This document shows, in pieces, positions 22 through 33,768 of a stretch of 38,084 bases of DNA. The notes below the pieces were generated by a model. That model was not told the DNA's origin, ran no database searches, and was given only the letters and a program-made list of their open reading frames with translations. Both the position numbers and the translations under genes were made by a program. Numbering within the stretch: the stretch's first letter is position 1; each line of letters begins with the position of its first letter. This DNA comes from Bacteroidota bacterium (GTDB taxonomy: Bacteria > Bacteroidota > Bacteroidia > J057 > RFSG01). The DNA lies in NCBI GenBank assembly GCA_947459115.1, contig CANHCC010000003.1, positions 1-38,084 of the forward strand, written 5' to 3'.

Positions 22-153
22 GCTTGGTGCAAGTATCCGCTTGGTGCAAGCCCCTGCTTGGTGCAAGCCCCTGCTTGGTGCAAGCCCCTGCTTGGTGCAA
101 GCCCCTGCTTGGTGCAAGCCCCTGCTTGGTGCAAGCATCCGCTTGGTGCAAGC
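22..153. repeat. Tandem array of 8 REP-like mini-hairpins GCTTG-GTG-CAAGC (17-bp period, 4-nt spacers ATCC/CCCT)
   Basis: Units start at 22, 39, 56, 73, 90, 107, 124 and 141 (first unit ends in T instead of C). The array lies directly upstream of a Y1 HUH transposase gene. Confidence 0.95.
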
Positions 154-165
154 GATGCATTTGTC

Positions 166-198
166 CTTGCGTTCCCCATACCCCATGTCGTATGTTTG
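166..198 (+). promoter_or_regulatory. Putative Bacteroidota primary-sigma promoter for RAYT1 (CTTG-N21-TATGTTTG)
   Basis: TAnnTTTG -7 match at 191-198; TTG-type -33 element at 166-169. Confidence 0.5.
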
Positions 199-223
199 CC
201 AGAAACACTAAAACTAAATACTT

Positions 224-937
224 ATGAAAAAAACAGTTGAATTCAAACCCGGGCTTTTTTACCACGAAGTTTTAAAAGCCAATTCTGATGGAATCCTATT
301 CAGGGATGCAGAAGACCGAAATTTCTTTCTCAACAAAATCCGAGCCTTCATCCTGCCCTGCTGTGAGGTCTGGGCTTATGTGATCTTGGGAAATCATGTC
401 CATTTGTTACTTAGGCCGCATCCCAAAGAAATCTTGGCCCGGCTTCCGTTGCAATTACACTTGCTGGATTTAGATTTGAGCATCGCAAATCTAAAAGAAT
501 ACCTGCAAAAGGATTTTAACTTAAGGCCACCTTACGCACTGAAGCCTTTTCAAGGCTCGATTCACTTCCAGATTCGGTATTGCATCAGAAGTATTAAACA
601 TTCCTACGACCAGTATTCCAAAAGAAAATACGAAACCAAAGGAGTGTTATGGTCCAGAGATAAGTTCACCAAAGAACTACCAACCGTTGAAGACATTGCT
701 CGAACGGTTCTGTATATTCATAAAAATCCGGTGTTTCATGGAATGGTGGATCAGCCAGAGGATTGGCAGCATTCCTCTTACCATGAAATCTTGGGAGGAG
801 AAAATCGAATGGTCATGCGGGAAGATGTTTTGAGTTTATTTAGAAATGAAGAGACCTTTCAAAGAGAACACTTTGCGACGGCTTCTGAGTTTGGGAGAAA
901 ACCCTCTCAGCAAAAAGTAGCCTTGCTAAATCGGTAA
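224..937 (+). CDS. REP-associated tyrosine transposase (HUH/Y1, IS200/IS605 TnpA superfamily), RAYT1
   Basis: YH..K/R N-terminal motif, LF.D..D...FL, AYVILGNHVHLL (HUH H58-V-H60), YIHKNPV (candidate catalytic Y164) and W.HSSY. Flanked on both sides by hairpin repeats. Confidence 0.85.
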   Translation: MKKTVEFKPGLFYHEVLKANSDGILFRDAEDRNFFLNKIRAFILPCCEVWAYVILGNHVHLLLRPHPKEILARLPLQLHLLDLDLSIANLKEYLQKDFNLRPPYALKPFQGSIHFQIRYCIRSIKHSYDQYSKRKYETKGVLWSRDKFTKELPTVEDIARTVLYIHKNPVFHGMVDQPEDWQHSSYHEILGGENRMVMREDVLSLFRNEETFQREHFATASEFGRKPSQQKVALLNR

Positions 938-950
938 TTAGAAAGTTACC

Positions 951-980
951 GCTTGGTGCAAGCCTCCGCTTGGTGCAAGC
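951..980. repeat. Two copies of GCTTGGTGCAAGC (spacer CTCC)
   Basis: Copies at 951-963 and 968-980, 13 nt after the RAYT1 stop codon. Confidence 0.95.
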
Positions 981-5114: not shown

Positions 5115-5783
5115 ATGGCAGAAAAATATCAAAATAAATATCGCATCCCATCTATTCGCCTTCAAAACTGGGATTACCGCAGGGCAGGGGGTTACTTCAT
5201 CACGATCTGCACCAAGGGAAGACAACATTATTTTGGCCAAATACGAAATAAAAAAATGCATCTATCCCAGGTGGGTGTTATTGCAGATCTACTCTGGCAT
5301 GAAATTAAAAACCATTCCAAAAATGTAATCCTTGGGGAATTTGTGGTGATGCCAGATCACATTCATGGGATATTGATATTGACGGGGGATGGCGGCGATG
5401 CCAGGGATGGCAGGGATGCCGGGGATGCCGGGGATGCCGGCCCTGCACAGACAGGGCATGCGGTACAGACAGGGCATGCCCTGTCTCTTCCGCATGCCCC
5501 ATCCCCATCGCAATCGCAATCCCCATCCCCATCCCAATCCCAATCCCCACCCCCTATCGGCCGACAACGCTACCAAAACATCGGGAAAAATTCCGTTTCC
5601 TCTATTATCGGCAGCTACAAATCTGCGGTAACGAAACACGCCAATCGGCTGGGTTTTGAATTCGGATGGCAACCCCTGTTTTACGAAAGCATAGCCCGAG
5701 ACCCGGAATCGCTTGAACGAATTTCTCGATACATTCGAAACAACCCCATAAAATGGAAAGAAGACAATTTTTATAAAAAATAA
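5115..5783 (+). CDS. REP-associated tyrosine transposase (HUH/Y1), RAYT2, with an in-frame REP/microsatellite insert
   Basis: SIRLQNWDY...GGYFITICT, FVVMPDHIHGIL (H82-I-H84), IIGSYKSAVT, WQPLFYE and RYIRNNP (Y206). Confidence 0.9.
   Translation: MAEKYQNKYRIPSIRLQNWDYRRAGGYFITICTKGRQHYFGQIRNKKMHLSQVGVIADLLWHEIKNHSKNVILGEFVVMPDHIHGILILTGDGGDARDGRDAGDAGDAGPAQTGHAVQTGHALSLPHAPSPSQSQSPSPSQSQSPPPIGRQRYQNIGKNSVSSIIGSYKSAVTKHANRLGFEFGWQPLFYESIARDPESLERISRYIRNNPIKWKEDNFYKK
5385..5550. repeat. Intragenic cassette: 6x 9-bp (RGGGATGSC), REP half-copy, REP (5463-5490), 9x 6-bp (CCCCAT-like)
   Basis: Read directly from sequence; translates as GDG/DAG repeats, VQTGHALSL and PS/QS repeats. Confidence 0.9.
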
Positions 5784-5851: not shown

Positions 5852-5995
5852 GGATCATCACGCATAAACGGATCATCCTGCATGCACGGATTATCATGCA
5901 TGCCTGGATAATCATGCATGCTTGCATAATCATGCATGCCTGGATAATCACGCATGCCTGGATAATCATGCATGCCTGGATAATCATGCATGCCC
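5852..5995. repeat. 8x 18-bp tandem repeat GGATAATCATGCATGCCT
   Basis: Units start at 5852, 5870, 5888, 5906, 5924, 5942, 5960 and 5978; the two most distal units are the most degenerate. Confidence 0.9.
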
Positions 5996-6023
5996 GTACA
6001 GACAGGGCATGCCCTGTCTCTAC
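5996..6023 (-). repeat. GTAG-type REP palindrome GTAGAGACAGGGCATGCCCTGTCTGTAC
   Basis: 28-bp near-perfect palindrome with a 5' GTAG on the minus strand; matches the intragenic copy at 5463-5490 at all but one base. Confidence 0.9.
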
Positions 6024-6111
6024 CCGCATATCCCACATATCTGGCATATCCCCAATCCCCATACCCATACCCAACATTTTCCCATAAATTTGCATCACAT
6101 TCAAAATCCGC

Positions 6112-27758: not shown

Positions 27759-27928
27759 GGTAATTTACCGGAAGGGGGGGGGTAAGTAACTTACCGGAAG
27801 GGGGGGTAAGTAACTTACCGGAAGGGGGGTAAGTAACTTACCGAAGGGGGGTAAGTAACTTACCAAGGGGGGTAAGTAACTTACTAGGGGGGGTAAGTAA
27901 CTTACCAAGGGGGGGTAAGTAACTTACC
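27759..27928. repeat. Tandem array of 7 palindromes GGTAAG-TAA-CTTACC with G-rich spacers (plus one degenerate unit)
   Basis: Units start at 27781, 27805, 27828, 27850, 27871, 27892 and 27914; spacers are 9, 8, 7, 6, 6 and 7 nt; degenerate GGTAATTTACC at 27759. Confidence 0.95.
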
Positions 27929-33551: not shown

Positions 33552-33571
33552 AATCCTGTCGTCATAAGTTC

Positions 33572-33609
33572 AATAAAAAAAGCAACTCATCCGGGTTGCT
33601 TTTTTTATT
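33572..33609 (+). terminator. Intrinsic terminator after nuoG
   Basis: AATAAAAAAAGCAACTC-ATCC-GGGTTGCTTTTTTTATT. Confidence 0.88.
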
Positions 33610-33613
33610 TATG

Positions 33614-33711
33614 GCTTGGTGCAAGCCCCCGCTTGGTGCAAGCCTCTGCTTGGTGCAAGCCTCTGCTTGGTGCAAGCACCCGCTTGGTGCAAGCACCCGC
33701 TTGGTGCAAGC
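33614..33711. repeat. Distal tandem array of 6 GCTTGGTGCAAGC hairpins (17-bp period)
   Basis: Units start at 33614, 33631, 33648, 33665, 33682 and 33699; spacers are CCCC, CTCT, CTCT, ACCC and ACCC. Confidence 0.95.
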
Positions 33712-33747
33712 AAAAAGAAACGCCGATTGATATAATCAACCGGCGTT
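33712..33747 (-). terminator. Intrinsic terminator of the atp operon
   Basis: Minus strand AACGCCGGTTGAT-TAT-ATCAATCGGCGTT followed by TCTTTTT. Confidence 0.8.
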
Positions 33748-33768
33748 CGCTTGTGTGTGTATTAAATA

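Follow-up and report, generated by a model that had tools for sequence, protein, structure and literature searches.

Why does a single transposase gene stand between head-to-tail rows of a hairpin of only 13 nucleotides (nt), and do the enzyme and the hairpin belong together? The question is raised by the first 38,084 bases of contig C3 (the window) in the assembly of a freshwater Bacteroidia bacterium (G000; 2.86 Mb, 280 contigs), where arrays of the element GCTTGGTGCAAGC surround a divergent transposase gene. The open reading frame (ORF) at 224-937 probably encodes a divergent class-2 Y1 HUH enzyme of the kind known as REP-associated tyrosine transposase (RAYT, or TnpA_REP; REP, repetitive extragenic palindrome), and GCTTGGTGCAAGC is probably its cognate minimal REP, a 17-nt unit of one NYCY tetranucleotide and a 13-nt hairpin, which would have been seeded intergenically and whose arrays would then have grown and shrunk locally.

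The gene starts with ATG, lies on the + strand and encodes 237 amino acids (aa). A pattern count over the window confirmed the layout given in a preliminary description of this DNA, namely eight hairpins (GCTTG-GTG-CAAGC) upstream at 22-153 and two downstream at 951-980, all on the + strand like the gene. The upstream units start at 22, 39, 56, 73, 90, 107, 124 and 141 and the downstream ones at 951 and 968, so the strict 17-nt period with variable 4-nt spacers (ATCC, CCCT, CTCC) also stands. A third array of six units (33614-33711, +), absent from the earlier list of features, is a dispersed member of the same family; it occupies a spacer of convergent genes, with a terminator-like hairpin on either side. 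With at most one mismatch the window holds 16 matches to GCTTGGTGCAAGC, all on the + strand and all exact save the copy at 22-34, which has one mismatch; 0.03 were expected, and none of 100 shuffles reached 16. The 21 bases before the first upstream unit are non-repeat and match the flank of the orthologous locus in a congener (G001), evidencing that the upstream array is complete even though it lies at the contig end. Between this array and the start codon, ATTTGTCC (159-166) and TATGTTTG (191-198) are invariant in the aligned upstream regions of four related genes (the window gene and L013, L014 and L015 of the congener). This stretch (159-198, +) may be a Bacteroidetes-type -33/-7 promoter, TATGTTTG fitting the Bacteroidetes -7 consensus TAnnTTTG, which suggests that these genes may keep a promoter of their own between array and start codon.

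G000 has 351 exact copies of the 13-mer, 200 on the forward and 151 on the reverse strand, spread over 108 loci; about 0.1 would be expected in 2 x 2.86 Mb. Both G000, which is 92% complete, and G001 are fragmented metagenome-assembled genomes, and repeat counts are therefore lower bounds. Exact neighbouring copies form 227 same-strand pairs at exactly 17 nt, against eight inverted '-+' pairs at 16-17 nt and one '+-' pair; thus, the REPIN-type unit of two inverted REPs is not the dominant form in this genome. The single orientation and purely tandem arrangement proposed earlier hold within the window and fail genome-wide, where these nine inverted pairs are joined by 42 exact solo copies. When near-copies are allowed, 388 units are counted at 123 loci, in arrays of 2-20 units and at 48 solo sites, and about 80% of the copies sit in 17-nt tandem arrays. 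Twenty of the 123 loci touch contig ends, indicating that the arrays break the assembly. Tandem Repeats Finder (TRF) reported higher-order periods of 34 and 51 nt as well. A reading of the arrays as CRISPR was rejected, the spacers being only 4 nt long.

Among 227 spacers taken from 60 perfect runs, 169 fit N-Y-C-Y, with a variable 5' tetranucleotide of the form [C/A]-Y-C-Y; CCCC (47), CTCC (29) and CCCT (23) are the commonest and ATCC is also common. In 32 of 57 arrays the tetranucleotide preceding the first unit fits this pattern too; the one following the last unit does so in 18 of 57 and is more often C-R-A-like. For this reason the repeat unit is read as spacer plus hairpin. The purine-rich tetramers formerly pointed out before each hairpin on the minus strand exist, but they are merely the complement of these pyrimidine-rich spacers. 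Because the GTG loop is constant, the spacer variable and solo copies exist, GCTTG-GTG-CAAGC is considered the conserved element. As single-stranded DNA (ssDNA) one unit folds into a hairpin of 5 bp with a GTG loop (-3.3 kcal/mol). The 4 nt 5' of the hairpin carry no GTAG foot, as had been stated, and no CGTC foot either. In contrast, the 5-bp stem and GTAG-less triloop, presented then as departures from known REPs, are already in print (PMC8266576, PMC3733652, PMC6006769). Placement was judged by crude longest-ORF calls (2,250 ORFs, by which 88.7% of the genome scores as 'coding'). In that background 45 of the 58 tandem arrays are intergenic, a REP-like placement, two straddle a boundary and 11 score as 'coding'; the six of these 11 listed wholly inside ORFs are all artefacts, consisting of an over-extended ORF 5' end or an ORF made by the array itself.

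The assignment of the enzyme relies on motifs, profiles and a predicted fold. H58 and H60 of the HUH motif (NHVH) and Y164 of the tyrosine motif (YIHKNP) are invariant in an alignment of 20 members of its clade, in agreement with the intact active site described at first, and W181 and S185 are invariant too. The NCBIfam model for REP-associated tyrosine transposases (REP_Tyr_transpos, NF047646) matches the window protein at E=6e-13. The sole significant sequence match in the PDB is 4ER8, the TnpA_REP of E. coli (E=0.012 when the single sequence is used and 3.6e-6 for a profile of 20 sequences), and the alignment spans YIHKNPVFHGMVDQPEDWQHSSYH (pattern YIxxNPVxHGxVxxxxDWxxSS) and residues 93-140 of 4ER8. 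An AlphaFold2 model built from the clade alignment (predicted local distance difference test, pLDDT, 90; predicted template-modelling score, pTM, 0.89) was compared with the PDB by Foldseek; 4er8_A ranks first (E=7.3e-8, TM by target 0.65), and the TnpA proteins of ISDra2, IS200 and IS608 come next. Family model, alignment and fold match agree with the earlier view of a divergent, RAYT-type Y1 HUH protein. The long segment noticed after the HUH motif is likewise real: 107 residues separate HUH and Tyr in the clade versus a median of 87 in 147 more distant relatives, the extra segment corresponding to approximately residues 66-112.

This protein belongs to a small and isolated clade, which is the form in which the proposed distinct group survives. 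Among 5.8 billion proteins, 21 clusters were found, of which 20 show 44-99% identity. When 1.84 billion representatives were searched exhaustively with a profile, only six reached E<=1e-30, after which scores fall from 246.7 bits (the weakest full-length one scoring 286.3) to 126 bits. Beyond this gap the same search reaches a very large family, with 2,384 members at E<=1e-10 and 14,080 at E<=1e-3; in these more distant relatives the HUH motif reads NHFH in 105 of 147 and the tyrosine motif is mostly YIHxNP. G000 holds three further clade members (on contigs C59, C53 and C80) and G001 three (L013, L014, L015), and close copies of the enzyme were found in these two only among 41 related genomes. 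A scan of genome contigs with the single protein detected no relative, an alignment-based scan detected only the three loci of the congener plus two spurious short matches, and a metagenome scan yielded ten loci, four of which are clade members. The paralogues are 40-81% identical, and no near-identical pair of gene copies is present. The gene is single-copy for each type and its locus, beside groES, is syntenic between the congeners. Elsewhere G000 has one canonical Y1_Tnp gene (C270). In contigs of three lake-water metagenomes from three studies the gene body was recovered, bounded by arrays, with 0-2 differences.

The evidence that ties enzyme and hairpin to one another comes from these paralogues and orthologues. 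Co-varying flanking hairpin arrays, whose lack in homologous transposases would have refuted the preliminary description, were found at eight of the nine clade loci, in the same design. The window gene and its congener orthologue L013 (69-70% identical; syntenic, with a shared upstream flank and a similar groES-side flank) both have GCTTGGTGCAAGC, L013 with six units upstream and 19 downstream at a period of 16. The C59 gene and L015 (81% identical) share GCTTACCCTAAGC with period 17, on both sides and on the same strand in L015, and the C53 gene shares GCTCCCCCCGAG, also with period 17, with the metagenome locus L025 (87% identical). Metagenome locus L023 has GGTTGGGTGTCAACC with period 17, and L014 of the congener has GTTTAGGGTAAAC with period 17 and purine-rich spacers. 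Within each of three orthologue or near-orthologue pairs both members have the same hairpin family, and the family changes from lineage to lineage, in line with co-evolution of enzyme and REP and with vertical inheritance. A 13-nt box (5-3-5 or 4-5-4) with 4 additional nt fits all of the families, and the stems are visibly related (GCTTG, GCTTA, GTTTA, GGTTG, GCTC), with changes paired between the arms. The flanking units lie on the strand of the gene in the window, in L013 and L015, and in L014 as far as its contig reaches. G001 has higher-order repeats of 32 nt made of GCTTGGTGCAAGC-type units in alternation with GTTTAGGGTAAAC-type and intermediate ones. The hairpin family designated D has 20 exact copies at 12 loci in G000, one of them directly upstream of its enzyme.

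Across the 41 related genomes the exact GCTTGGTGCAAGC 13-mer was counted 351 times in G000 and 167 times in G001; in the other 39 it is absent from 35 and occurs once in four. A distant relative of the same order (L003, 29% identical) is flanked by palindromes that alternate in orientation, in the manner of classical bacterial interspersed mosaic elements (BIMEs), and TRF found no array at the other distant loci (L004-L012, L026-L031). Based on these observations, the tandem design is regarded as a property of a narrow clade.

By analogy with TnpA_REP and the TnpA enzymes of IS200/IS605 (PMC8266576), the enzyme would bind the folded hairpin on ssDNA, nick beside it through Y164 with formation of a 5'-phosphotyrosine link, and rejoin the ends or transfer the strand. 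Strand transfer may seed units in further intergenic spacers, for the most part at gene 3' ends, and wherever at least two units became adjacent the array could grow or shrink, either by enzyme-mediated re-insertion beside a unit or by replication slippage, the latter being plausible in view of the ability of any 5' arm to pair with any 3' arm. The enzyme may itself build the arrays, as was proposed earlier, or may only seed units that slippage then expands. The gene is not itself mobile; it has one copy for each type and keeps a conserved locus beside groES. Several duplications of the enzyme have taken place in the lineage, each paralogue co-diverging with a 13+4 hairpin family of its own. 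As to the cleavage site, the dinucleotide predicted by the GTAG-guide rule (PMC8266576) occurs in no spacer on either strand, and no site is proposed.

Several observations weigh against this explanation. The NCBIfam score of the window protein is 48.9 bits, below the curated cut-off of 80 bits, and Pfam Y1_Tnp (PF01797) is only hinted at (E=0.013, 16.1 bits versus a cut-off of 23). Sub-cut-off NCBIfam scores (39-66 bits) were also obtained for all ten other relatives scanned, two of them clade members (P0020, P0022) and eight more distant. The hairpin is weak, the register CAAGC-spacer-GCTTG folds equally well within arrays, and the folding ensemble is diffuse. In place of a conserved GT[AG]G foot there is a variable 4-nt spacer, from which a guide-sequence role cannot be read. 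The most divergent clade member (C80, 40-45% identical) has a long inverted repeat on its two sides, with neither an array nor a hairpin family. In the classical definition of RAYTs the flanking REPs are inverted (Nunvar et al., 2010, PMC2817692); here they are direct. The co-occurrence of enzyme and 13-mer concerns one lineage of two congeners and is one evolutionary event, not a statistic. Metatranscriptome contigs from one data set cover groES (1087-1300) and not 177-924, although contigs cannot show absence. Array-specific spacers fit slippage and enzyme-mediated re-insertion next door equally well. Finally, cut-and-paste insertion does not predict length-neutral copies, and six of seven solo copies compared with the congener proved length-neutral (one in a C10 ORF, one in a gmd-like gene, one in secA, two in a C95 ORF and one in a C161 ORF).

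Among the competing explanations, the one that survives best takes the arrays for a hairpin minisatellite that propagates itself by slipped-strand mispairing or unequal exchange, the gene merely lying within one such array or having seeded the first copies long ago. We consider it unlikely, yet the dynamics of the arrays are in part what it predicts. Adjacent spacers are identical in 70 of 167 pairs (0.42) versus 0.085 between different arrays, and identity decays slowly (0.33, 0.32 and 0.27 at lags 2, 3 and 4), which indicates that arrays grow by copying their own units. Contigs C44 and C92 (both at 1-330) start in the same locus, with near-identical flanks that differ by a few single-nucleotide polymorphisms, and have 6 versus 12 units; this is strain-level copy-number variation inside the sampled population. 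The contigs of three lake metagenomes provided no array-length variants, since all assemblies break at arrays. The 34- and 51-nt periods and the ability of the arms of neighbouring units to pair in either register point in the same direction. However, slippage cannot create some 110 dispersed loci of one 13-mer, nor does it account for five enzyme lineages each standing in arrays of a hairpin of their own, one of these families having no more than 12 loci in the genome. Moreover, in the G001 spacer orthologous to window positions 33553-33768 an inverted pair of the GTTTAGGGTAAAC family replaces the six-unit array. Such colonisation by another family evidences that array occupancy turns over faster than the species split, and does not fit the minisatellite explanation.

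The RAYT/REP partnership is thus preferred over slippage alone, and the placement of the arrays bears on a further alternative, in which they are elements selected by the host, i.e., stacks of terminators or mRNA stabilisers, or protein-binding sites, at the 3' ends of genes, with the RAYT-like protein as a domesticated maintenance nuclease. For the 30 arrays with both neighbours called, 17 lie between convergent genes, 11 between co-directional and two between divergent ones. This preference for convergent spacers agrees with such a role, as do the position of the 33614-33711 array between two terminator-like hairpins, the single-copy and syntenic character of each enzyme type, and the housekeeping-like behaviour reported for RAYT genes (PMC5581495). 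Nevertheless, the arrays show no orientation preference and occur in both orientations relative to flanking genes, the hairpin is weak and has no T-run, and the differences in copy number and occupancy found between strains and between congeners speak against a fixed function. Altogether, we judge host selection to be improbable.

Still less probable is an autonomous insertion sequence like IS200/IS605 (IS608, ISDra2), in which the gene and its same-strand end hairpins would form the mobile unit and the arrays would be its left and right ends. The likeness is real: one-strand hairpins lie at both ends of a Y1 gene, on the strand of the gene and in the layout known for that family (PMC8266576), the tetranucleotide 5' of the hairpin occupies the position of the guide sequence, which is also that of the REP GTAG, and IS200/IS605 TnpAs are the next-best fold matches. 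Unlike those elements, the gene here is not multi-copy, lacks a TnpB partner and has the YIHKNP motif of the RAYT class instead of Y---Q (motif table of PMC6006769), and its hairpin has been amplified without it, as 351 copies stand without a matching number of genes. The absence of near-identical copies among paralogues that are 40-81% identical and the synteny of the locus between congeners speak against mobility of the gene too.

The solo copies inside genes form a separate problem. Twenty-four of the 42 exact solo copies are located well within ORFs of 150 aa or more. They use every frame and both strands, usually take the form of a 15-mer (G-13mer-C), and encode GLVQA, GLHQA, LGAS, LAPS or ACTK. 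In the ORF set, in which some ORFs are array artefacts, the exact 13-mer encodes 12 of 30 LVQA, 9 of 24 LHQA, 9 of 34 LGAS, 8 of 15 LAPS and 10 of 15 ACTK tetrapeptides; in coding DNA the 13-mer occurs about once per 100 kb. Seven sites in six genes (L032-L038: C10:6805, C47:3260, C178:3485, C95:3849, C95:3951, C161:2807 and C8:26034) were aligned with orthologues from G001, from a further genome (G002) and from more distant ones; at none of the seven is the 13-mer present in G001 or G002. In secA a conserved GLHQA is only re-coded, 13 of 15 bases already matching in G001; at the other sites 7-11 of 15 bases match and amino acids are changed (e.g., GLLTV to GLVQA). The names secA and gmd are our assumption from conserved motifs that we recognised, not from a database match. 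The seventh site (C8) falls in a region of variable length and is ambiguous. The lack of a length difference at the other six indicates that intragenic solo copies overwrite sequence rather than insert into it, candidate processes being short-patch conversion from the many copies elsewhere, or a stepwise drive as for uptake sequences.

That the 13-mer as a whole is a word over-represented through uptake or repair bias (as DNA uptake sequences or cyanobacterial HIP1), accumulated by substitution and only secondarily linked to the transposase, is hardly credible, for the intragenic solo copies, the six length-neutral sites with the re-coded GLHQA of secA and the share of LVQA and LHQA encoded within the 13-mer fit it, whereas the tandem arrays that hold about 80% of copies are a form such words do not take, the density in coding DNA is low and the pairing of enzymes with hairpins across paralogues is left unexplained. 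Within the RAYT/REP reading, it is conceivable, though we would not expect it, that the clade has two modes of writing its 13+4 unit, one giving head-to-tail arrays in perfect register and the other giving 15-nt patches (GGCTTGGTGCAAGCC) that leave length unchanged and overwrite only partly similar sequence in intact and even essential genes (secA, gmd). If true, this would amount to a templated conversion of short patches, associated with a Y1 HUH enzyme or with the single-stranded units that it releases, a mode of spread not described for REPs, and, if the copies are indeed enzyme-linked, a new route by which repeats reshape coding sequence.

How does this system compare with those already known? 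With the REPtrons of E. coli (YafM/4ER8), Stenotrophomonas and Marinomonas it shares the Y1 HUH domain, the Y-x-x-x-N-P motif and the TnpA_REP fold (PMC8266576, PMC2817692), as well as a gene in single copy that stands among abundant intergenic copies of its own hairpin, co-divergence of enzyme and hairpin and a preference of hairpins for the 3' ends of genes; the 5-bp-stem REP of Marinomonas is an active, proven substrate (PMC8266576). Unlike in the REPtrons, a variable NYCY replaces the GT[AG]G foot, the flanking hairpins are direct instead of inverted, strict 17-nt head-to-tail arrays dominate over singlets, inverted doublets or BIMEs, and the protein, at 237 aa, exceeds the 165 aa of the 4ER8 chain by about 70 residues, has the additional segment behind its HUH motif and scores below the curated cut-offs. 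Among the TnpA_Y1 subclasses, compared by motifs and descriptions, 2.6 (Bertels group 5) comprises Bacteroidetes proteins with NH[LIV]H, WQ and YIH[QN]NP and 'atypical' GTAG-less hairpins, mostly with stems of 7-10 bp, a length of 21-35 nt, often triloops and a 3-5-nt 5' foot, although the list includes, from B. xylanisolvens, a 13-nt unit of the 5-3-5 type (PMC6006769, Table S1). The host, the NHVH motif, the nearly fitting YIHKNP and the GTAG-less hairpin agree with this subclass, whereas W-S in place of W-Q and 237 aa versus a mean of 179 do not. The NHFH of the nearest profile relatives (105 of 147) is closer to the motif set of subclass 2.1, which was reported to lack REPs (PMC6006769). 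The word 'tandem' does not occur in that paper.

Tandem organisation itself has precedents. In Pseudomonas fluorescens SBW25 distinct hairpin families stand each beside its own RAYT and also form ordered tandem clusters, ascribed to 'a second mechanism' (PMC3116915). There, the replicative unit is an inverted doublet and the tandem modules, flanking sequence included, measure about 71-184 bp. The module described here consists of one hairpin and 4 nt, 17 nt altogether, and the inverted pairs, the nine mentioned above among 108 loci, are a small minority. The GTAG-1 elements of Thauera sp. MZ1T also have 5-bp stems and are largely clustered in arrays, having been found through a tandem-repeat database, but carry a GTAG tag (PMC3733652). 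According to the same source, head-to-tail REP dimers are absent or rare in most genomes, and intragenic REPs are inserts that add amino acids, in contrast to the length-neutral copies described here. A search of the literature for single-hairpin head-to-tail arrays beside a RAYT gene, which left bioRxiv supplements and subscription journals outside, returned clustered or tandem REPs (Thauera, SBW25) and no 17-nt design.

The multiplication of REPs is still largely inferred, and the known substrates are 20-40 nt long with a fixed GTAG tag. The present system is a stripped-down variant of the known REP/RAYT partnership. Its new features are the dominance of a minimal 13+4 unit, the conservation of this design in at least five enzyme/hairpin pairs that have co-diverged within one genus-level lineage, flanking hairpins that are direct, and the length-neutral intragenic copies. 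With the smallest unit met in this analysis, a 13-nt hairpin plus 4 variable nt, the lineage offers a handy minimal model, and at least five pairs of the same design in close genomes constitute a natural specificity-swap series for binding and cleavage studies. Whether the 'foot' serves as a guide sequence like that of IS200/IS605 is a question on which the strict 17-nt register, the direct orientation on both sides of the gene and the variable 5' tetranucleotide have a bearing. In addition, since their copy number varies between strains, the arrays are practical strain markers for this lake lineage.

Other RAYT-like genes are present in the genome. Seven ORFs of 251-257 aa in G000 (on C7, C51, C103, C12, C31, C42 and C16) are RAYT-like and lack the HUH motif and the catalytic Tyr (e.g., ...RNKLL... 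and ...IQNTPLIH...). Five of the seven share the upstream element ...GTTGCGG.CACAACAGA..TGACA..., and none has flanking arrays; a role of these paralogues as mobilisers of other array families was rejected because HUH motif, Tyr and flanking arrays are all missing. The window contains a second, unrelated RAYT gene (5115-5783, +; PDHIHG ... YIRNNP), with motifs resembling subclass 2.4 (PMC6006769). Between its HUH motif and its Tyr the gene carries in-frame insertions of low-complexity repeats and of its own palindrome, ACAGACAGGGCATGCCCTGTCT; downstream of the gene this palindrome appears again together with a seven-unit 18-nt array of GGATAATCATGCATGCCT (features at 5447-5490, 5870-5994 and 5998-6025). 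A third RAYT, also like subclass 2.4, lies at C13:26100-27500 (-); its reading frame contains one TAG, and a 'double-foot' palindrome (GTAGAGACGCG...CGCGTCTCTAC) is located downstream of the gene and twice within it.

Two further repeat families were observed. At window positions 27777-27928 there is a seven-unit array of the hairpin ACTTACC-(loop)-GGTAAGT (7-bp stem, period 21-22), a family with many loci in G000, variable loops and periods of 21-25, for which no linked transposase gene was found. A short tandem repeat, AATCCGTGT, occurs separately at 25 loci of G000 with period 9 and 2-3 copies per block, often as two blocks 67 nt apart (e.g., C11:22532-22623, C27:23850-23941 and C62:12766-12936).

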